Positions 4,352-12,131 of a stretch of 27,788 bases of DNA are shown piece by piece (positions within the stretch are counted from its first letter, which is position 1; each line of letters begins with the position of its first letter). Position numbers and translations under genes: made by a program. The notes beneath the pieces are model-generated. The model ran no database searches. It worked only from the letters and a program-made list of their open reading frames with translations, and was not told the origin of the DNA. The stretch spans positions 1 through 27,788 of the forward strand of contig JASJBX010000016.1 in the NCBI GenBank assembly GCA_030066295.1, read 5' to 3'. The DNA comes from Crocosphaera sp. (GTDB taxonomy: Bacteria > Cyanobacteriota > Cyanobacteriia > Cyanobacteriales > Microcystaceae).

Positions 4352-4377
4352 CCCACGGACTCTAACCCGTGGGTTTT
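4352..4377 (+). terminator. Rho-independent terminator after the 3882..4304 gene
   Basis: Stem CCCACGG (4352-4358) pairs with CCGTGGG (4367-4373) around an 8-nt loop, followed by TTTT. Confidence 0.6.
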
Positions 4378-4465: not shown

Positions 4466-7258
4466 ATGCGCTGTTTAAACTGCCACCTTGATAACCTTCC
4501 CGAAACCACCCAACTTTGTCCCCATTGTGGGGCGCAAGTTATCGCTTTGTTACAGGAAGTGTTACCCCAAGGAACTCAACTGCGATCGCATACATATTGT
4601 CTTGATGATGCCATGGGAAAAGGCAGTTTTGGCATTACCTATCGCGCCCATCATACCCTCTTAAAGAATCCTGTCGCTATTAAAGAGTTTTATCCTGTCG
4701 AATATGTCTCCCGAAATATTGAAACCAAACTCTTAATTATTCCTGAAAAACATCGGGACGCATATCAAAGAAATCTCTATCGTTTTTTGGAAGAAGGAAA
4801 AATATTAGCTAAGTTAGATCATCCCAATGTTGTTAAAGTCAGAGACTTGTTTGAAGAACGAGATACAGCTTATATTGTCATGGACTTGGTAGAAGGAAAA
4901 ACCCTATTACAAGAACTAGAAAATCAACCCAATCAAAAACTATCGACCGACAGAATAGAAAACCTAATTGGACAATTAGTTAATGCCTTAACTGCCATTC
5001 ATGAAGCCGGAATATATCATCTGGATTTGAAACCAGAAAATATGCTCTTAACCCCTGAAAATCAATTGATTTTAATTGACTTTGGGGCAGCTACATTAGC
5101 CAGTGATGCTAAACGAAAGAAAACCCGTTCTTTTACCGAATGTTATGCAGCCCCCGAAATAATGTCAGGGGGAGAAATAGGACCCCAAAGCGATCTCTTT
5201 GAAGTCGGAATGATCCTCCATGAACTATTAACAGGAAAATTACCCCCTCCAGCCATGACCCGTGTTTTAGAAACGGATACTTGGCAGCCTCAAGGGTTAG
5301 ATTATCCTTGGGATATGTTAATTGTTGATGCGTTAAGAATTCAGAGGACTTATCGCAGTTCAACAGTAGATCAATGGTGGGAAATGCGAAAAGAAAAAAA
5401 AGAAAATGTTATTAAAATTGAACAAAAAAGTATAGAAAATTTACAAGGAAAATTTGCCTTACCCCTATTACAACAACAAGGAATGGCTCAGAAGTTAGGG
5501 CGTGGTTGTATTAGAAAAGTGATCCCAGTTACTCAAAATCAAGTCTTAGTTTTAGAAGCAGGAGGTGCATCATTATTCAATTTTAAAACTCAAGTTACCC
5601 ATTGGGAAATTGACTGCCCTAATTCCTGTGGAGCTATCAGTGAAAATAAAAATATATTAGCTCTCGTTTGGCAACAAAATATCTACTTATGGGATTTAAC
5701 TCAAGGAACTTTTTTAAGGCAATTACAAGGTCATTCAAAGAAAATTACCGATCTTGCTTTTAATAAAGATGGTTCTTTGTTACTCTCAGGAAGCCTCGAC
5801 GAAACCTTAATTATCTGGGAAATTAAAACAGGGAAAAAACGTCACGAATTATCCGATCCCATGGGACAAATAACCGCCGTTGCCTTTAGTGCAGATAATC
5901 AATTTATTGCCTCGGGTTGCCATACGGGAATAGTAAGAATTTGGGGGGCTATATCTGGACAGGAATGGCGATGCTTAGAAGGTCACAAAATGGCAGTGGA
6001 AAGCTTAATTTTTAGCTCCGATAGTAAAGTATTGGCTTCAGGAAGCCGAGATCAAACCATTCGTTTATGGGATGTTACTTCAGGGAAATTTCAACAAGTA
6101 TTAGAAGGTCATCAAGACTGGGTAACAGGGTTAAGTTTTGATAAAAATGCAGAACATTTAGCCTCTGCATCGGCCATTAATGATAAAACCATTCGTATTT
6201 GGTCCATTGCACAACGACAACCCATTCAACACCTACAAGGACACAATAACAGTATTAAAGCGATCGCCTTTTGTCCCGATGATCGTTATCTGATCTCAGC
6301 AGCATCCGATAATACCATCCGTCTCTGGGATGGAGAAACCGGAACAGCGATCGAACAACTACAACACCATACCAATTGGGTGTATAGTGTGGCCTGTAGT
6401 GCCGATGGTCGGTGGGTGGCGATCGCCTACAGTGATGGGACTGTCCATCTTTGGGATGTCATAAAACAACGGGAAGTCAGTTGTCTCGAAGGTCATGAAA
6501 GTGCAGTTTCTAGTCTGGCTTTTTGTCCGGATAGTCAACATTTGGTATCCGGCAGTTGGGATGGAACCCTCAGAGTTTGGGATATTCACACAGGAAAATG
6601 TAAACGCATTTTACAAGGTCATCAACACTGGGTCAGCAGTGTTGCAGTCAGTCCTAATGGTCAATGGGTTGCTTCGGGAAGTTGGGACAAAACCGTTTGT
6701 CTTTGGGAGATAAGTCACAGTTGGCCTAATTTTAAAGGAAGTAAACCCACTCGTATTTTACTGGGTCATTTAGAAGATATTGAAGGGGTTGCTTTTAGTC
6801 CGGATAATCAATTAATGGCTAGTTGTAGTAATGATAAAACCATTAAAATCTGGGAAGTTGTATCTGGTCAACAAGTCCAACAATTAGGAGGTCATCAATA
6901 TAGCGTTGAAGATGTGGTTTTTAGTCCCGATGGTCAATTTATTGTTTCCGTTAGTCGGGATAAAACGGTGAGAGTTTGGCACATTATTTCGGGTAAGGAA
7001 ATTCATCGTTTTCAAGGTCATACTAATTATGTTAATTGTGTGGCATTTTGTTTAAATGGTCGTTATTTGGCCTCAGGAGGAAAAGATAAAATGATTGCTA
7101 TTTGGGATCTCATTTCAGGGGAATTAACCCAATTAATTCAAGGTCATACTAATAGTATTAATAGTATTGCTTTTACTGGGGATGGTTCCTATTTAGTGTC
7201 TGGGGATAATGATGGTGTGGTGAGACTATGGACGTTACAGCTAGGAAGTGAGGGTTAG
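4466..7258 (+). CDS. Ser/Thr protein kinase with an N-terminal zinc ribbon and about 14 C-terminal WD40 repeats
   Basis: Zinc ribbon: CLNC...CPHC. Hanks kinase motifs: GKGSFGITY, VAIKEF, HLDLKPEN (non-RD, catalytic Asp present), DFG, AAPE. From about residue 375 there are repeated LxGH...(V/I)xxxAFSPDG..(L/I)ASGSxDxT(I/V)R(L/I)W(D/E) units, roughly 14 in number, enough for two propellers. Confidence 0.9.
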   Translation: MRCLNCHLDNLPETTQLCPHCGAQVIALLQEVLPQGTQLRSHTYCLDDAMGKGSFGITYRAHHTLLKNPVAIKEFYPVEYVSRNIETKLLIIPEKHRDAYQRNLYRFLEEGKILAKLDHPNVVKVRDLFEERDTAYIVMDLVEGKTLLQELENQPNQKLSTDRIENLIGQLVNALTAIHEAGIYHLDLKPENMLLTPENQLILIDFGAATLASDAKRKKTRSFTECYAAPEIMSGGEIGPQSDLFEVGMILHELLTGKLPPPAMTRVLETDTWQPQGLDYPWDMLIVDALRIQRTYRSSTVDQWWEMRKEKKENVIKIEQKSIENLQGKFALPLLQQQGMAQKLGRGCIRKVIPVTQNQVLVLEAGGASLFNFKTQVTHWEIDCPNSCGAISENKNILALVWQQNIYLWDLTQGTFLRQLQGHSKKITDLAFNKDGSLLLSGSLDETLIIWEIKTGKKRHELSDPMGQITAVAFSADNQFIASGCHTGIVRIWGAISGQEWRCLEGHKMAVESLIFSSDSKVLASGSRDQTIRLWDVTSGKFQQVLEGHQDWVTGLSFDKNAEHLASASAINDKTIRIWSIAQRQPIQHLQGHNNSIKAIAFCPDDRYLISAASDNTIRLWDGETGTAIEQLQHHTNWVYSVACSADGRWVAIAYSDGTVHLWDVIKQREVSCLEGHESAVSSLAFCPDSQHLVSGSWDGTLRVWDIHTGKCKRILQGHQHWVSSVAVSPNGQWVASGSWDKTVCLWEISHSWPNFKGSKPTRILLGHLEDIEGVAFSPDNQLMASCSNDKTIKIWEVVSGQQVQQLGGHQYSVEDVVFSPDGQFIVSVSRDKTVRVWHIISGKEIHRFQGHTNYVNCVAFCLNGRYLASGGKDKMIAIWDLISGELTQLIQGHTNSINSIAFTGDGSYLVSGDNDGVVRLWTLQLGSEG

Positions 7259-7260
7259 AA

Positions 7261-7295
7261 GGCAGGAGGCAGGAGAAAGGAGGCAGGAGGCAGGA
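7261..7295. repeat. Heptanucleotide tandem repeat (GGCAGGA)2-GAAAGGA-(GGCAGGA)2, STRR-like
   Basis: Direct reading of 7261-7295 shows five 7-nt units, four identical. The repeat starts 3 nt after the kinase stop and ends 2 nt before a perfect TATAAT (7298-7303). Confidence 0.8.
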
Positions 7296-7330
7296 GTTAT
7301 AATAAGTTTACTGGTAAATAGTCAAAAATA

Positions 7331-7756
7331 ATGGAAACTTTTACAACTGCGAAAATTCTAGAGTTTGTGGTAGGTGCAGTGATTACAATGGGGGTAGAAA
7401 ATCTCCCAACTGCCACTAAAAAACTGTATCAAACTATTCGTAACCGCTTGCAAAATAAACCCGTTGCAAGCACAGCAATCAGTGAAATTGAAGAAAATAA
7501 CTCAACTGACCAAATTCCCAATTTAGCCCCTTTCTTGGACGTGGAAATGTTGTCTGATGAGACGTTTAAACAAGAGGTGCAGCAATTAGCAAAAGAAGCC
7601 ATGAATCAAGACAAAGAAACCATTAATATTCATGTTGCTAAAGCTGAAAAAAGTACGGTTGTGGGGAAGCAAAAATCAGACAATCTCAACAATTATAATG
7701 CAGAAGAAATTAACAATATTGGCACACAGAATGTTATTAACGTAAAAAAGGACTAG
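7331..7756 (+). CDS. 141-aa ORF; probable N-terminal module of the downstream STAND protein (zero-frame product)
   Basis: ATG at 7331. N-terminal hydrophobic helix AKILEFVVGAVITMGV, an acidic and helical middle, and an N/Q/G/V/I-rich tail (...NNYNAEEINNIGTQNVINVKKD). It ends GTA AAA AAG GAC TAG, overlapping the open -1 frame of the NB-ARC ORF. Confidence 0.6.
   Translation: METFTTAKILEFVVGAVITMGVENLPTATKKLYQTIRNRLQNKPVASTAISEIEENNSTDQIPNLAPFLDVEMLSDETFKQEVQQLAKEAMNQDKETINIHVAKAEKSTVVGKQKSDNLNNYNAEEINNIGTQNVINVKKD
7744..7750 (+). other. Candidate -1 ribosomal frameshift (slippery) heptamer A_AAA_AAG, or the site of a 1-nt A-tract indel
   Basis: In the zero frame of ORF 7331..7756 the codons are GT[A AAA AAG] GAC TAG. 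The -1 frame from 7750 (GGA CTA GAG...) is the NB-ARC ORF frame, which is open from 7741. Confidence 0.45.
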
Positions 7757-7788
7757 AGGAAAATGATGTACAACGACTCATAGAATTT

Positions 7789-10515
7789 TTGCAGGAAAAA
7801 CCTGATAGAAAAGTAACCTTATCATCCAGTGTCATTACCTCACCTCCTCTCGTTAAACCTTGGGTGGATAGGTTAGAAGAAATGACCACTATTCAAAGTT
7901 GGATTGATGATGCTGACGTTAATTTAATCGGGATTGTTGGGTTAGGTGGAATCGGAAAATCTGCCTTGGTTGCTTATTTTTATAACAATTTTTTTAACAA
8001 AAACGTAGAAACGTTTCATGAAACGTTTCTACAAAACAAATTTTGGGCTGATGTTAGTTTAAATCCTGATTTTGCTGCTTTTGCTGAATCCATCATTAAG
8101 GGGTTATCAGGAACAGTAAATGCGACGGGTGACGTTAATATTTTAATTGCTGATTTATTCAGAATTTTACATAACAATCGTTGTTTATTAGTGGTGGATA
8201 ATATTGAAACTTTATTAGATGAATCAGGAGAATGGCAAAGCGAAAATTATGCTACATTTTTTCAGCGTTGGAAGCAACAAGGACACACCAGTATTTTATT
8301 GTTAACTACAAGGGATAAACCTAATCTCTATCGAGGAGACAATAATTGGTATTCTCTGGGACGTTTTACGGTTGATGAAGGTAAAACACTATTAAAAGGA
8401 TTACAAATTGAAGGAAGCGACCAAGACCTAGAAAATTTAGTTACTCAAATAGATGGTCATGCTTTGACCTTAAGATTAGTAGCATCATACCTCAAAGAAT
8501 ATTGTGATAGTCAACTAAATCAAGTGAAAGAATTGGGTTTAGATGAATTTGAGTTAATTTACAACGAAGCATCAGGACTCCATCGCAATAAAACCGATGC
8601 ACGATTATCATGGATATTAGAACAACATTTAGACCGTTTAAGCGAGAAAAAAAGACAATTTTTAGTTAATTTATCTGTCTATCGTCAACCCTTTGACGTA
8701 ACAGCAGCAACGGGAATGTATATCAATGCTAATTTTGCAGAAGGAGAGACAGAAGAAAACATCAAACCCATAGAAGTAAAAAAAGAATTACAAAATCTGC
8801 TCCATCGTTCCTTATTATCCCGTAGTAATAAAAAAGGTTATGAATGTCCCCTATTACTTAAACCCTATTTACAGAAAAAATATTCGGACTTAACTAACTG
8901 TCATCAAACAGCAATTAATTATTATTTATCTGTTGTTCCCCCCAAACCCTGGAAAACCCTGGATGAGATACAAGGATATTTAGAGATTTTTTATCATTAT
9001 TATCAACTCGGAGAATATGACACAGCGTTTGATTATTTACATGATATTGATCAGTTTATGACTTTCCAGGGATATTATCATCTTCTAGTAGAATATTATT
9101 CAGATTTAATCAGGGGATATAAGAAAAATAAAAAGAAAGATAATAGAAATTATGCACATTCACTTAATAACTTAGGTGATACTTACAATTTACTGGGACA
9201 ATATAAACAGGCCATAGAATACTTTCAACAGTCCTTAGCTATCTTTACAGAAATCGGCGATAGAGAAGGTGAAGCTCGTTCCTATACTAATTTGGGGAAT
9301 GCTTACAATTACTTAAAGAAATATCAACAAGCTATAGAATATTCTCAGCAGTCCTTAACTATTTATAAAGAAATTGGTGAGCATAAAAGCAAAGCGAATT
9401 GCTACAATAATTTAGGCATTACCTATGAATCTCTTAGAGACTATGAACAGTCTATTCAATACTACGAGAAGTCTTTAGCTATTGCAATTGAAACGGATAA
9501 CCCGAATATACAGGAAAAATCTTATAATAATTTGGGTTTAGTTTACAACTCTCTAGGAAAATATCAATCAGCGATAGAATACTATGAGAAGTCTTTAGCT
9601 ATCTGTACAGAATTAGGCGATCGTCCTGGTGAAGCTTCTTCTTATATTAATTTGGGTTCTACTTACTATGAATTGCAACAATATGAACAAGCAATAGAAT
9701 GCTATCAACATTCTTTAGCTATCGATATAGAAATTAACAATCATCTAGGTAAAGGTGATTCTTATCTTGGTTTAGGTAATGCTTATTATTCCCTGAAACA
9801 ATATGAAAAAGCGATACAATACCATCAACAGTATTTAGATATCTCTACAGACATTAGCAATCGCAACGGGGAAGCAATTGTCTATCATAAATTGGGTTCT
9901 GCTTACAATTCCCTGGGACAATATCAACAAGCAATAGAATACTATCAACAATCCTTAGCTATCAAAAAAGAAATCGGCAATAGAAAGGGTGAAGCAATTT
10001 CCTATAATAAATTGGGTTCTGCTTACAATTCCTTGGGACAATATCAACAAGCCATAGAATACCATCAATTTGCATTACAATTATTCCAACAATTAGGGAA
10101 TCCTCATGATATTATTAGCTGTCTTGAAAATTTAGGTAAGACTTATTTCTGCTTAAAACAATACTCCCAAGCAAGAGACTATTATCAAGCAACCCTAGAA
10201 ATTAAACGAAGATTAGAAGACAAAGAAGGAGAAGCAAGAACATTAATAACTCTCAGTAAAATCTATTCTGAAATGGGAAAAGTAAAAGAAGGTTATGCTT
10301 TATGTTTTCAAGGTAGTCAGATATTACAAGAATTAGATTTACCCCTCTCAGAAATGCCATATCCTCAGTGGTTCAAATCTTTGATACAATTTGGACAACA
10401 GAGTAAACTGCAACTGATTTTATGTTTTGTTTTTGGAATCATTGCTTTTCCCTTTGCTTTAGTGGGTTTTATTTTATTATTAATATGGAGAAGGATTAAA
10501 GGAATGATTGATTAG
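7789..10515 (+). CDS. NB-ARC (STAND/AP-ATPase, NLR-like) NTPase with about 10 TPR repeats and a C-terminal transmembrane helix
   Basis: Walker A: GIVGLGGIGKS (7939-7962 covers GLGGIGKS). Walker B-like: CLLVVDNIE. Also LLLTTRD and a GLPL-like IDGHALTL. Then about ten 40-aa TPR units (NLGxxYxxLGxYxxAIEYxxxSLAI...). The last ~30 aa are hydrophobic followed by RRIK. The track start is TTG at 7789. The only ATG before the P-loop is at 7882. The frame is open from 7741, so the true N-terminus may come from 7331 via the frameshift. Confidence 0.9.
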   Translation: MQEKPDRKVTLSSSVITSPPLVKPWVDRLEEMTTIQSWIDDADVNLIGIVGLGGIGKSALVAYFYNNFFNKNVETFHETFLQNKFWADVSLNPDFAAFAESIIKGLSGTVNATGDVNILIADLFRILHNNRCLLVVDNIETLLDESGEWQSENYATFFQRWKQQGHTSILLLTTRDKPNLYRGDNNWYSLGRFTVDEGKTLLKGLQIEGSDQDLENLVTQIDGHALTLRLVASYLKEYCDSQLNQVKELGLDEFELIYNEASGLHRNKTDARLSWILEQHLDRLSEKKRQFLVNLSVYRQPFDVTAATGMYINANFAEGETEENIKPIEVKKELQNLLHRSLLSRSNKKGYECPLLLKPYLQKKYSDLTNCHQTAINYYLSVVPPKPWKTLDEIQGYLEIFYHYYQLGEYDTAFDYLHDIDQFMTFQGYYHLLVEYYSDLIRGYKKNKKKDNRNYAHSLNNLGDTYNLLGQYKQAIEYFQQSLAIFTEIGDREGEARSYTNLGNAYNYLKKYQQAIEYSQQSLTIYKEIGEHKSKANCYNNLGITYESLRDYEQSIQYYEKSLAIAIETDNPNIQEKSYNNLGLVYNSLGKYQSAIEYYEKSLAICTELGDRPGEASSYINLGSTYYELQQYEQAIECYQHSLAIDIEINNHLGKGDSYLGLGNAYYSLKQYEKAIQYHQQYLDISTDISNRNGEAIVYHKLGSAYNSLGQYQQAIEYYQQSLAIKKEIGNRKGEAISYNKLGSAYNSLGQYQQAIEYHQFALQLFQQLGNPHDIISCLENLGKTYFCLKQYSQARDYYQATLEIKRRLEDKEGEARTLITLSKIYSEMGKVKEGYALCFQGSQILQELDLPLSEMPYPQWFKSLIQFGQQSKLQLILCFVFGIIAFPFALVGFILLLIWRRIKGMID
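9151..10354 (+). repeat. Array of about ten 120-nt (40-codon) TPR-encoding units with visible DNA-level periodicity
   Basis: Recurrent ...aatttgggt..gcttacaat..ctgggacaatatcaacaagc.atagaatac.atcaaca.tccttagctat... Units 9841-9960 and 9961-10080 are nearly identical over about 80 nt. Confidence 0.7.
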
Positions 10516-10697
10516 GGTTGAGGAATTTCTAAATCTCGGCAAATTTTGCGGACTAAAAACTCATTAATTTCTCGATGTCTTGGAATGGCTGACACTTTTT
10601 GAACTTTTCGATTAACATACATTGTATGATTTCCTCTTTCTCGAAGAAATTCGCATCTATTGACTTCTAAATGCTTAATTAAATCTCTTCTTTTCAT
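10512..10697 (-). CDS. hicA: HicA-family toxin (mRNA interferase)
   Basis: 61 aa with the pattern MKRRDLIKHLE.N.C.FLRERGNHTMY...S.IPRHREI...L.RKICRDLEIP, typical of cyanobacterial HicA/YcfA proteins. Its start overlaps the upstream hicB-like stop (ATGA). Confidence 0.75.
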   Translation of the reverse strand: MKRRDLIKHLEVNRCEFLRERGNHTMYVNRKVQKVSAIPRHREINEFLVRKICRDLEIPQP

Positions 10698-10912
10698 TAT
10701 CCCGATACAGTTAGGGTTTCTCTAATAACATCCATTCCTTGAATAGATTCTTCTGCTAACATTCGATTAGATTCTAATACTAACTCGATTGCTTCTAATA
10801 AATTACTTCTCGCTTCCTCTAGGGTTTTTCCTTGAGTGTTTGCACCTGGTAATTCTTCAACAAAAGCAATATAACCTTCTGGAACCTTTTGAAAAATTGC
10901 TGTTAACCGCAT
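10697..10912 (-). CDS. hicB: HicB-family antitoxin (short form, no DNA-binding domain)
   Basis: 71 aa, MRLTAIFQKVPEGYIAFVEELPGANTQGKTLEEARSNLLEAIELVLE, a HicB/UPF0150-like N-terminal fold pattern. Translationally coupled to hicA. Confidence 0.7.
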   Translation of the reverse strand: MRLTAIFQKVPEGYIAFVEELPGANTQGKTLEEARSNLLEAIELVLESNRMLAEESIQGMDVIRETLTVSG

Positions 10913-10996
10913 AAATGTACACTTTTATTTTTCTTAACCCATTATATCATAAAAATATATTAACCCACGCTGACTACGACAAGGAGAACTGGAAAA

Positions 10997-11119
10997 ATGA
11001 CCCTTACTTTTAATCGAGACACTTACGCAAATTTACTTGCTAAATATCAACCTAAAATTATCGAAACTGAAGAAGAAAACGAACAAGCGCACCACAAAGC
11101 GGATCTCTTTCTCCAATAA
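10997..11119 (+). pseudogene. Remnant of a HigA/XRE-type antitoxin gene (only about 31 N-terminal codons retained)
   Basis: AAGGAG (10981-10986) precedes the ATG at 10997. MTLTFNRDTYANLLAKYQPKIIETEEENEQA matches the conserved N-terminus I recall for cyanobacterial HigA-like HTH antitoxins. The reading then runs antisense into the hepT remnant and stops after 40 codons, before any HTH. Confidence 0.45.
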
Positions 11120-11255
11120 TAATGATTTGATATAAAACAGATGACTGGGTTTTTTCATCCTCTAAAAAATCATCTTGATTCATTTCTCTTGTAAAAGCTA
11201 AAATCAACCGACAAGCTTTAACTATATCTAAAATAATTTCTTTATCTCTTGACAT
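11058..11255 (-). pseudogene. hepT: Truncated HepT (DUF86/HEPN) toxin gene lacking the Rx4-6H catalytic motif
   Basis: MSRDKEIILDIVKACRLILAFTREMNQDDFLEDEKTQSSVLYQIIIIGE is the DUF86 N-terminal half, up to the conserved IIGE. The following 16 codons (RDPLCGALVRFLLQFR) are unrelated, and no RxxxxH motif is present. The start overlaps the mntA stop, as in intact MntA/HepT pairs. Confidence 0.6.
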
Positions 11256-11595
11256 AAATAACCTCATTATTATCTAAAATATTGTGACGACGAATCCAAT
11301 TATCACTTTTTTCTATGAATTTCTTTGTTACTATATCCACTGATCGATTTAATAACTTTGTAACTTCCTGTTCTAACGTTTCTAAATCTAAAAGACTTAT
11401 ATGATTGTTAGCTTCAAAACTAACCAAAATATCAATATCGCTGTTCAAGTTAAAATCATCCCGTAAAATTGAACCAAATAAAGCTAATTCAACAATTCCC
11501 CATTGATGACAAAATTGTTTAATTATTTCTAATTCAACCCCTAACCGTTCTTTTATTTTAGGATTAACTTCTAGTTGATAATTTACCTTGACCAT
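11242..11595 (-). CDS. mntA: MNT-type nucleotidyltransferase antitoxin (MntA)
   Basis: 117 aa with the nucleotidyltransferase signature LFGSILRDDFNLNSDIDILV (GS...D.D). Located immediately upstream of, and overlapping, the DUF86 gene. Confidence 0.8.
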   Translation of the reverse strand: MVKVNYQLEVNPKIKERLGVELEIIKQFCHQWGIVELALFGSILRDDFNLNSDIDILVSFEANNHISLLDLETLEQEVTKLLNRSVDIVTKKFIEKSDNWIRRHNILDNNEVIYVKR

Positions 11596-11657
11596 AATTT
11601 TTTAGTTCTCAAGATTAACGATTGTAGAAATCTAAGTCTGGATTAAGTTGGTGATAG

Positions 11658-11676
11658 GGCATAATATCATTATGCC
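11658..11676. promoter_or_regulatory. Perfect 8-3-8 palindrome GGCATAAT-ATC-ATTATGCC upstream of hicA; candidate operator
   Basis: Direct reading. The arms are exact reverse complements. The site lies 22 nt upstream of the hicA ATG (11698) and is flanked by -10-like CATAAT/TAGAAT hexamers. Confidence 0.5.
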
Positions 11677-11697
11677 TCCACATAACATAATAGAATA

Positions 11698-11919
11698 ATG
11701 CCGAAAAAAATTAGAGAATTAAAACAAATACTCAAAAAAGCAGGATTTAGCTATCAACCCGCAAAAGGAAGTCATACAAAATGGTCACATCCTCAACTAT
11801 CTAAATCCATTATTATTGCTGGAAAAGATGGAAGTGATGCTAAAATATATCTAGAAAAGCAAGTTATGGAAGCCATTGACATCTTACAAAAAATCAATCA
11901 AGAGGATAATAATCAATGA
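11698..11919 (+). CDS. hicA: HicA-family toxin
   Basis: 73 aa, MPKKIRELKQILKKAGFSYQPAKGSHTKWSHP... (the canonical HicA G-S-H core). Its stop overlaps the hicB start (ATGA at 11916-11919). Confidence 0.8.
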   Translation: MPKKIRELKQILKKAGFSYQPAKGSHTKWSHPQLSKSIIIAGKDGSDAKIYLEKQVMEAIDILQKINQEDNNQ

Positions 11920-12131
11920 AATACACTATTGTTATTCAATGGTCAGAAGAAGATCAATGTTTCGTTGTGTTTTTACCAGAATTTGAAAACGTGATGCAAC
12001 CGGTAACTCACGGAGAAACCTATCAAGAAGCTTTTAAGAATGCACAAGAAGTTTTAGAATTATTAGTAGATTCAGCCATCTCAGAAGGTCAACTATTACC
12101 CGAACCTAAACAACTCTTTGAAGTAGCATAA
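11916..12131 (+). CDS. hicB: HicB-family antitoxin (short form)
   Basis: 71 aa, MKYTIVIQWSEEDQCFVVFLPEF...THGETYQEAFKNAQEVLELLVDS, a typical HicB N-terminal domain. Confidence 0.8.
   Translation: MKYTIVIQWSEEDQCFVVFLPEFENVMQPVTHGETYQEAFKNAQEVLELLVDSAISEGQLLPEPKQLFEVA

Follow-up and report, generated by a model that had tools for sequence, protein, structure and literature searches.

Do two reading frames that meet on one strand of a cyanobacterial genome encode two separate proteins, or does the ribosome join them into one? This question is raised by a locus in Crocosphaera sp. (contig JASJBX010000016.1). The whole stretch of DNA analyzed, called the window in the following, comprises 27,788 nt, and the block under study occupies positions 4466-10515 of its + strand. 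It contains three open reading frames (ORFs), all on the + strand: ORF1 (4466-7258, 930 aa), ORF2 (7331-7756, 141 aa) and ORF3 (7789-10515, 908 aa if counted from a TTG codon). The original prediction, made from the letters alone, had described three co-oriented ORFs, namely a kinase fused to WD40 repeats, a small protein and a STAND ATPase, and had suggested that they may form one signalling unit. ORF calling and Pfam recovered all three frames together with their domains, and yet the grouping that we arrive at is a different one. We propose, with a probability of roughly 0.75, that ORF2 and ORF3 represent one recoded Bell/NLR gene of the cell-death type, the two parts of which would be joined by -1 frameshifting. 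The kinase gene is probably an independent, lineage-specific neighbor.

The junction between ORF2 and ORF3

The gap of 72 nt reported between ORF1 and ORF2 is correct. The gap of about 0 nt between ORF2 and ORF3 had been taken for an ordinary gene boundary, which it does not appear to be, because a slippery site lies there and the downstream frame is already open. The zero frame of ORF2 runs into the heptamer A_AAA_AAG shortly before its stop codon (Table 1), and the frame of ORF3 is open from position 7741, i.e. 13 nt before the ORF2 stop. Between 7741 and 7882 this frame contains neither an ATG nor a GTG. The sole candidate start before the ATG at 7882 is the TTG at 7789, a position which reads TGG in most relatives. 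A -1 shift on the heptamer is predicted to yield a product of 1061 aa (...NVINVKK-GLEENDVQRLIEFLQEKPDRK...), consisting of residues 1-140 of ORF2 and 921 further codons. The linker that precedes the ATG behaves as coding sequence: the ratio of nonsynonymous to synonymous substitution rates (dN/dS) is mostly 0.2-0.45, length differences comprise whole codons only, and the -1 frame is free of stops, the other two frames being full of them. The heptamers A_AAA_AAG, G_GGA_AAG and C_CCA_AAG are the most shift-prone ones in Escherichia coli, where the frequency of frameshifting is approximately 0.3% if no stimulator is present and reaches 54% in combination with the IS3 pseudoknot (PMC4066793; PMC5009743).

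To take related sequences into account the junction was read in eight loci: the window, C. chwakensis CCY0110 (L001/L002), the Crocosphaera metagenome-assembled genomes (MAGs) L003 and L004, and the metagenomic contigs L006-L009. In all eight, ORF2 ends in A_AAA_AAG (six loci) or G_GGA_AAG (two loci), followed by 0-1 codon and the stop. The -1 frame leads into the NB-ARC domain in every case; it opens 7-16 nt before the stop in seven loci and 40 nt before it in L003. Among the start codons only the ATG of the peptide RLEEM, 44-45 codons downstream, is conserved, and gene callers let ORF3 begin there. The codon in front of AAA AAG encodes V, T, E, Q or A, and its third base is always A; the codon in front of GGA AAG is TTG, CTG or GTG. 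This is an argument for selection at the nucleotide level, as the preceding amino acid varies while the third base is fixed.

The wider family was collected by a profile scan of metagenomes with a subset alignment of the family, which gave 61 loci, and by a profile scan of genome contigs with a narrow Crocosphaera alignment, which gave three; the scripts were run over all loci. Clustering of the Bell ORFs at 90% identity left 49 clusters, 17 of them with A_AAA_AAG, nine with G_GGA_AAG, one with C_CCA_AAG and 22 with none, so that a terminal heptamer is present in 27 out of 49. Counted by ORF, it occurs in 29 out of 69 Bell ORFs compared to 1 out of 887 other ORFs (Fisher p = 3e-35). The single non-Bell case (339-1247 in L069), the sequence of which suggests a methyltransferase, has a closed -1 frame and was discarded as a chance occurrence. 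Sites of the form TTTAAAT, located 18 nt before the stop in loci of the L051 type, were likewise rejected, their -1 frames being closed. Among 107 family proteins from a large protein database, 68 end in ..KK(x) or ..GK(x).

Three junction architectures were found. In type A, to which the window belongs, the Bell ORF ends in one of the three heptamers, 0-1 codon and a stop (in L066 the spacing is seven codons). The -1 frame is nearly always a long NB-ARC ORF (up to 1603 codons) or stays open to the end of a short contig; it closes after 63 codons in L022 and after 88 in L065. In many type A loci no ATG, GTG or TTG occurs in the -1 frame until at most about seven codons before the P-loop, and in some the first one is located at the P-loop or behind it. 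The distances of the first start and of the P-loop from the stop are, in nt, 242/263 (L013), 251/266 (L018), 200/197 (L011), 323/197 (L019), 221/197 (L030), 185/182 (L056 and L064) and 191/188 (L066). With first starts at or near the P-loop, it is hard to see how a functional NTPase could be initiated independently. Two of these loci differ in their sensor: the NLR of L013 (-1 frame after 1153) and L018 (-1 frame after 5435) carries WD40 repeats in place of TPR, and the -1 linker contains a β-strand-like, G/N-rich stretch (e.g. DAIGNAILSGNGNVVIFQTSR) unlike the Bell tail, which may be a second motif.

Type B is the classical pair: the Bell protein ends in ...VGKIEADTVNF or a similar sequence, and the NLR, which is initiated at an ATG of its own, repeats the motif at its N-terminus. 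In type C the Bell ORF ends in TGA followed by C, with the NLR in the same frame, in ten out of ten loci (L051, L052, L054, L057, L059, L063, L068, L072, L073, L074; TGA at 8415-8417 in L072 and in L073, and at 4466-4468 in L074). No start codon precedes the P-loop in L051 and L057. This looks like programmed UGA-C readthrough, a third route by which Bell would be joined to the NLR. Among the named genomes with type A or C are Crocosphaera spp., a Prochloraceae MAG (L075), a Leptolyngbyaceae MAG (L072), Argonema antarcticum (L073) and Aerosakkonema funiforme (L074).

A further hint arises from the comparison of these architectures. P0150, a protein of 226 aa from a metagenome of the European Nucleotide Archive, naturally joins Bell, linker and NB-ARC in one frame, the amyloid tail having been deleted together with the slippery site. 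The linker it carries is that of the type A -1 frame, which shows translation of this linker beside a Bell domain. The predicted trans-frame products of type A align with the N-terminal leaders of type B NLRs in the same order through to the P-loop. The motif on the Bell side of type A sits at the position of the BASS10 motif on the NLR side of type B, at a similar distance from NB-ARC. A type A and a type B locus, L024 and L023, are near-identical from ASSKAESVGIKAGDPPKSLA to the P-loop. A second copy of a STVVGKQ-type motif was not found in the NLR frame of the window, whereas type B relatives possess both copies. A classical amyloid pair was therefore rejected for the window. The effector motif would thus reach the NLR in three ways: by a duplicated copy, by frameshifting or, apparently, by readthrough.

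Taken as a frameshift gene, the window contains a zero-frame X_XXY_YYZ heptamer and an overlapping -1 ORF without a conserved start of its own. Conservation beyond the amino-acid constraint is seen in the 27 clusters with one of three interchangeable heptamers and in the fixed third base before it. That frameshifting occurs in the window, and how often, we infer by comparing sequences.

The two predicted products and their proposed interplay

The product of ORF2 (sequence start METFTTAKILEFVVGAVITMGV) is the predicted small protein with a hydrophobic N-terminal helix. Neither Pfam nor PADLOC yielded a match. A Pfam scan of 107 family members gave weak chance matches only, including HetE-N (PF20701) in four members with E-values of approximately 0.005-0.008, below the cut-off; the family therefore lies outside Pfam. 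AlphaFold2, run with 107 sequences, places six helices at aa 6-113 with a predicted local distance difference test score (pLDDT) above 90 up to about aa 100 and leaves the tail of aa 111-141 disordered.

The family is one of small, free proteins. An exhaustive phmmer search with ORF2 returned 28 representatives, nearly all of 95-151 aa, among them P0036 (E 2e-7) with a BASS10-like tail (...STVKQVGKIEGDNVSF). A word search for homologues yielded standalone proteins only, 116-141 aa in length and of Crocosphaera-like origin, and in a profile search 120 out of 121 members (62-176 aa) are standalone.

The assignment to a known family comes from relatives with described partners. BLASTP aligns ORF2 with the Bell protein of L046 (E 1e-14, 34% identity), and the alignment reaches into the motif (STVVGKQKSDNLN compared to STVKMVGKIEADTVN). 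The type B loci L039, L046 and L055 carry the bass_10 pair EPF21721.1/EPF21720.1, listed for Microcystis with the motifs "IAMNATAYDNSTVKMVGKIEADTV" and "NEINLSATAQDQSKVNLIGKIEAKTVIVS", respectively (Table S2 of Dyrka et al. 2020, bioRxiv 10.1101/2020.01.06.895854). According to the same authors, Bell proteins comprise approximately 120-140 aa, begin with a hydrophobic helix and are acidic at position 2-3. Their genes adjoin NLR genes, the C-terminal BASS motif being repeated at the N-terminus of the NLR, and in rare cases Bell is itself the N-terminal domain of the NLR. ORF2 has the size, the helical domain of approximately 100 aa, the hydrophobic N-terminal helix and the acidic position 2 of this family. 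Judged by sequence and context it is a Bell-family member, with a negative outcome of the structural test given below. The earlier suggestion of a membrane-directed effector thereby becomes plausible, since ORF2 falls into the Bell-domain family, whose known relatives are executioner domains that target membranes. By analogy, its tail would form amyloid and template the effector.

ORF3 was scored by Pfam as NB-ARC (PF00931, 37.3 bits, cut-off 23.5) followed by TPR_12 (E 7e-92). The motifs GLGGIGKS and LLVVDN are conserved in its homologues. The description as a membrane-anchored NB-ARC protein with about ten TPR units holds, as the domain, the motifs and the strongly hydrophobic C-terminal helix were all found. 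A pseudogene had been considered as an alternative; the ATPase encoded by ORF3 is intact, of STAND/NLR type, and bears a repeat sensor. PADLOC-DB v2 gave generic TPR matches for ORF3 and neither Avs nor bNACHT. Within the TPR array a DNA tandem repeat with a period of 120 nt extends over 9520-10068 (4.6 copies, 73% match). The C. chwakensis orthologue of ORF3 has 595 aa compared to 908 aa in the window, which indicates that the number of sensor repeats varies among close relatives. Such variation is also reported for other NLRs.

From this we derive a potential mechanism, modelled by analogy with the Bab/Agp antiphage system and the fungal HET-S/NWD2. Standard translation of ORF2 would provide an abundant free Bell protein of 141 aa with a disordered, BASS10-like tail. 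A minority of ribosomes would slip by -1 on the A_AAA_AAG heptamer one codon before the ORF2 stop, and this could yield a rare membrane-anchored protein of 1061 aa that contains Bell, the tail motif, the linker, NB-ARC, about ten TPR units and the C-terminal anchor. The TPR array might sense a cue, whereupon NB-ARC would oligomerise and cluster the N-terminal Bell and motif parts. The cluster could then recruit or template the free Bell protein, which would damage the membrane and lead to cell death in a manner resembling abortive infection.

Table 1. Positions of sequence features in and next to the block, numbered along the window.
Feature	Position	Strand	Basis or remark
Terminator-like hairpin closing the upstream 140-aa gene	4352-4373	+	5' limit of the block
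ORF1: Zn-ribbon, Ser/Thr kinase and 13-14 WD40 repeats, 930 aa	4466-7258	+	Pfam, motifs; neighbor, not part of the conserved module
AGGCAGG heptanucleotide tandem repeat, 5.3 copies	7260-7296	.	Tandem-repeat search; in the 72-nt ORF1/ORF2 spacer
ORF2 zero-frame product, 141 aa, Bell domain and C-terminal tail	7331-7756	+	Homology, AlphaFold2
Bell-like all-helical domain, aa 1-110, hydrophobic first helix, Glu at position 2	7331-7660	+	AlphaFold2; dN/dS 0.20
Disordered tail with BASS10-like STVVGKQ (aa 108-114) and second element NIGTQNVINV (aa 129-138)	7652-7744	+	Alignment; pLDDT <50; dN/dS 0.37
-1 slippery heptamer A_AAA_AAG in the ORF2 zero frame (GT[A AAA AAG] GAC TAG)	7744-7750	+	Sequence, conservation
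-1-frame linker, 44 codons (GLEENDVQRLIEFLQEKPDRKVTLSSSVITSPPLVKPWVDRLEE), coding, without conserved start codon	7750-7881	+	dN/dS, in-frame indels
-1-frame part of the predicted trans-frame protein: linker, NB-ARC, TPR array, C-terminal membrane helix	7750-10515	+	Translation, Pfam
ORF2 zero-frame stop, one codon after the heptamer	7754-7756	+	Sequence
P-loop (Walker A) GLGGIGKS	7939-7962	+	Motif search
Walker B LLVVDN	starts at 8185	+	Motif search
TPR array, about ten 40-aa units	8905-10340	+	Pfam; tandem-repeat search
C-terminal hydrophobic helix (tail anchor), ORF3 aa 874-900	10408-10488	+	Also in homologues P0001 and P0008

Alternative explanations, the kinase gene and the surroundings

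Several observations weigh against a recoded gene and have to be set against the evidence given above. A stimulatory RNA structure was not found behind the heptamer (RNAalifold 0 pairs; z = -0.88 for the window alone), and no element resembling a Shine-Dalgarno (SD) sequence was seen by eye upstream of it. Near the heptamer, nothing but the zero-frame stop, 0-1 codon downstream, is conserved, and this stop is the only candidate enhancer; as no stimulatory element was found, the efficiency of the shift may be low or even very low, as with the value of about 0.3% given above for E. coli. In the Crocosphaera clade the conserved ATG (7882, the M of RLEEM) lies 19 codons before the P-loop, and some independent initiation of a Bell-less NLR may occur there. 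In L036 (5394-5408) and L047 (709-723) the sequence TTG GGG GAG GAT TAA replaces TTG GGA AAG GAx TAx, with the -1 NLR frame open and no early start. Either the site is degenerate and inactive in these two loci, or the shift proceeds by a different mechanism. A Foldseek search of the PDB with the ORF2 model gave a best E-value of 2.2, and the Bab domain 9H9V was not among the matches. One must keep in mind that Bell folds show a large topological variation (Ibarlosa et al. 2024, bioRxiv 10.1101/2024.11.07.622273), so that the missing match to 9H9V is weak negative evidence. That the ORF2 protein would attack membranes and that the system would act in defence is an extrapolation by analogy.

The obvious alternative is that of two ordinary genes, with a free Bell effector, an ORF3 that starts at ATG 7882 (or TTG 7789) and a heptamer without function. 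Gene callers settle on the RLEEM ATG throughout the Crocosphaera-like loci, the family also comprises, as type B, pairs in which each gene has its own start, and a frameshift-stimulating structure was not found, as stated. However, the 44-45 codons on the 5' side of this ATG are under purifying selection in the ORF3 frame, change in length by whole codons and contain no stop, while no conserved start codon precedes them. In the wider relatives a start more than about seven codons before the P-loop is absent, and often there is none at all. The heptamer is conserved at the nucleotide level and tied to an open -1 NLR frame. An NLR beginning at 7882 would moreover lack the amyloid motif which classical partner NLRs carry at the N-terminus. 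We therefore regard two separate genes as unlikely. It is far harder still to believe in a decayed gene or an assembly error, i.e. an in-frame Bell-NB-ARC-TPR gene broken by the deletion of one nucleotide in the A-run. One A added to the A6 run does restore a single ORF, homopolymer runs are prone to indels, and rare in-frame Bell-NLR fusions exist (P0150; Dyrka et al. 2020). The same split is nevertheless found in 27 clusters and many assemblies, and a protein identical to ORF2 is present on seven contigs from several sources (NCBI name "Crocosphaera sp."). Neither G_GGA_AAG nor C_CCA_AAG is a long homopolymer run, purifying selection acts on both halves as well as on the linker, the -1 frame of 921 codons is intact, and nearly the entire family is standalone. 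A pseudogene or sequencing error was rejected on the recurrence of the split, the standalone family and the purifying selection. A change of frame by slippage of the RNA polymerase on the A-run, instead of the ribosome, has an equally slight chance: the A_AAA_AAG class offers runs of A6-A7, and slippage is known for longer A/T runs (PMC3711429). Yet efficient slippage is reported for runs of more than seven A's or more than eight T's (PMC3711429), a length not reached here, ten clusters use G_GGA_AAG or C_CCA_AAG with only three A's, and the constant register of heptamer and zero frame is a signature of tRNA re-pairing.

The remaining alternative concerns the extent of the system, namely the three-gene signalling unit in which the kinase gates or reports STAND activation. 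ORF1 itself is as described. Pfam assigns aa 47-262 to Pkinase (E 1e-42) and scores 12 stretches of a WD40 array (E 1e-136), and the sequence contains an N-terminal CxxC...CxxC and the kinase motifs VAIK, HLDLKPEN, DFG and APE. A strict pattern detects 11 repeat ends with a spacing of about 42 aa at aa 490-919. Two more are visible upstream by eye, leading to 13-14 blades for the Hanks kinase that had been credited with 14 repeats. A joint function could be argued from the co-orientation of the genes, the 72-nt spacer and the lack of a terminator between them (a hairpin scan found no terminator-like hairpin on the + strand inside the block), and also from the kinase being kept beside the pair in L001-L004. 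In addition, tblastn with the kinase found a second, unrelated lineage (L022/L024) with kinase-WD40 about 1 kb upstream of the Bell/NLR pair, another ORF lying in between. On the other side, the kinase adjoins the pair only in the close clade of the window, L001-L004, and shared synteny weighs little here because these are close relatives (85-92% identity). The pair is kept with other upstream genes and without the kinase in L006, where a divergent Pyr_redox_2 gene lies directly upstream of the Bell ORF and the downstream genes are as in the window (HicBA, AMP-binding, YlqD, response regulator, histidine kinase). The Crocosphaera-like L009/L010 show the same arrangement as L006. The kinase is absent from L072-L075 as well; L072-L074 have a pentapeptide-repeat gene upstream and L075 an ORF of 524 aa, which, read by eye, is presumably a TnpB-type transposon protein. 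The GC content differs as well, with approximately 0.37-0.42 over the kinase gene compared to approximately 0.32-0.35 over most of the NLR gene, and PADLOC-DB v2 yielded only generic kinase-domain matches (mad6, PD-T4-6). The synteny comparison called for by the original prediction thus shows a linkage that is not conserved across genomes, and a common signalling unit is very unlikely. The linkage represents at most a weak recurrent neighborhood, and ORF2 with ORF3, joined by frameshifting, would form a gene on their own. The kinase gene may nonetheless be co-transcribed with them in this strain.

The surroundings are largely as had been announced. The terminated gene upstream of the block is confirmed by its hairpin. 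Upstream lies a group II intron, and downstream the predicted toxin-antitoxin loci are found as two HicA/HicB pairs and an MNT with a truncated HepT. The GC content is approximately 0.30-0.35 over 7.5-12 kb (NLR gene and toxin-antitoxin cluster) compared to 0.42-0.47 in the flanking core genes. The low-GC region of 7500-12000 is consistent with a variable island, and the defence-island-like setting that had been expected is seen in this AT-rich stretch adjoining toxin-antitoxin genes. Toxin-antitoxin genes also lie directly 3' of the NLR in L001, L072, L073 and L074.

We further report some observations on the neighboring sequence. The AGGCAGG repeat fills half of the 72-nt spacer and resembles the short tandemly repeated (STRR) sequences of cyanobacteria. 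The group II intron is located on the - strand with a reverse transcriptase/maturase ORF at 1286-2980 and an Rfam Intron_gpII match (77-nt model) at 1202-1279. This match overlaps the first codons of a predicted 6-pyruvoyl-tetrahydropterin synthase ORF (338-1240, - strand), the start of which is probably mis-set, unless the intron abuts the gene. At 11058-11595 (- strand) an MNT nucleotidyltransferase of 117 aa is followed by a HepT-like ORF of 69 aa. The latter covers only positions 3-39 of the 120-position HepT model and looks like the decayed toxin of an MNT/HepT pair.

Relation to known systems and implications

The locus had been considered not to belong to a named system. This is only partly true, as ORF2 and ORF3 correspond to the Bell/NLR pairs of bacterial amyloid signalling (Dyrka et al. 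2020), while in PADLOC-DB v2 no system-specific model was matched by ORF1, ORF2 or ORF3. The closest relatives are the BASS10 Bell/NLR pairs of cyanobacteria, with a small Bell protein of approximately 130-140 aa, a hydrophobic first helix and an acidic position 2, encoded directly upstream of and co-oriented with an NB-ARC-TPR NLR; ORF2 is homologous to them including the tail motif. The difference is that the NLR of the window has neither a conserved start nor an amyloid motif of its own, and Bell and motif would be supplied by -1 frameshifting. Bab/Agp, an antiphage system of E. coli acting by abortive infection, resembles the pair in having a Bell-related helical executioner with a C-terminal amyloid motif, which an adjacent sensor activates. 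For this class phage defence was observed experimentally, with the executioner moving to the cell periphery (Ibarlosa et al. 2024). Its motif is however BASS11, its genes are separate, and the ORF2 model did not match 9H9V. In HET-S/NWD2 of Podospora anserina and further fungal pairs a prion-like motif at the N-terminus of the NLR templates a pore-forming helical effector encoded next door, but these are eukaryotic, encoded by separate genes and free of recoding. Avast2 and bNACHT02/11/23, antiphage NLRs with a Bell/HeLo-like N-terminal domain, resemble the predicted long product, which would likewise be an NLR with an N-terminal membrane-targeting helical domain; a conserved N-terminal motif has been noted in them (10.1101/2024.11.07.622273). 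Unlike the window they are single ORFs; they were not found as homologues, in line with the PADLOC result for ORF3.

With regard to recoding, dnaX (tau/gamma), OrfA-OrfAB of IS3/IS911 and the phage tail chaperones G/GT use A_AAA_AAG and related heptamers. As proposed for the window, the shift site ends a short upstream ORF, and two products with a common N-terminus arise at a set ratio. In contrast to these, no stimulatory hairpin, pseudoknot or SD-like element was detected in the window. The term "frameshift" is absent from the main texts of Dyrka et al. 2020 and of the Bab/Agp paper, and both "frameshift" and "readthrough" are absent from the main text of a motif-detection paper of 2025. By the same kind of term search, the GeneTack survey (Antonov et al. 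2013) does not mention NB-ARC, tetratricopeptide, ATPase or Nostoc, and the review of Atkins (2016) does not link frameshifting to cyanobacterial NLR/STAND genes. Full-text literature searches, with incomplete coverage of subscription journals, did not bring up recoding in any NLR, Bell or BASS gene. Bell/NLR amyloid pairs and -1 frameshifting on these heptamers are known, and recoding in an immune-type NLR gene class would be new, a statement that is provisional given the incomplete coverage of the literature.

Beyond the single locus, we tentatively suggest, at somewhat less than even odds, that recoding is a widespread, so far unnoticed means of coupling the NLR sensors of bacteria to pore-forming effectors activated by amyloid. 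A single gene would provide many free effector molecules and a few that are fused to the sensor. The prion-like motif would be the same in sensor and effector, and the ribosome would determine the ratio of the two, through a -1 frameshift or, in sister lineages, through UGA-C readthrough. As the shift depends on the decoding of A_AAG by tRNA-Lys, the dosage of the sensor might respond to a perturbation of translation or of tRNA during infection.

If the frameshift takes place, approximately half of the Bell subfamily (the 27 heptamer clusters; 68 out of 107 proteins by their C-terminal peptides) would be mis-annotated as a hypothetical small protein and an N-terminally truncated "tetratricopeptide repeat protein", whereas the true sensor would be a Bell-NLR fusion produced at a low stoichiometry set by the ribosome. 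A chromosomal, non-mobile, immune-type family would join the short list of conserved bacterial -1 frameshifts, and the lasting match between the amyloid motifs of sensor and effector would have a simple explanation. Bacterial NLR-type proteins and amyloid-controlled Bell effectors are under investigation as ancestors or analogues of innate immunity in eukaryotes, and the three interchangeable architectures would represent a natural experiment on the ratio of sensor to effector.

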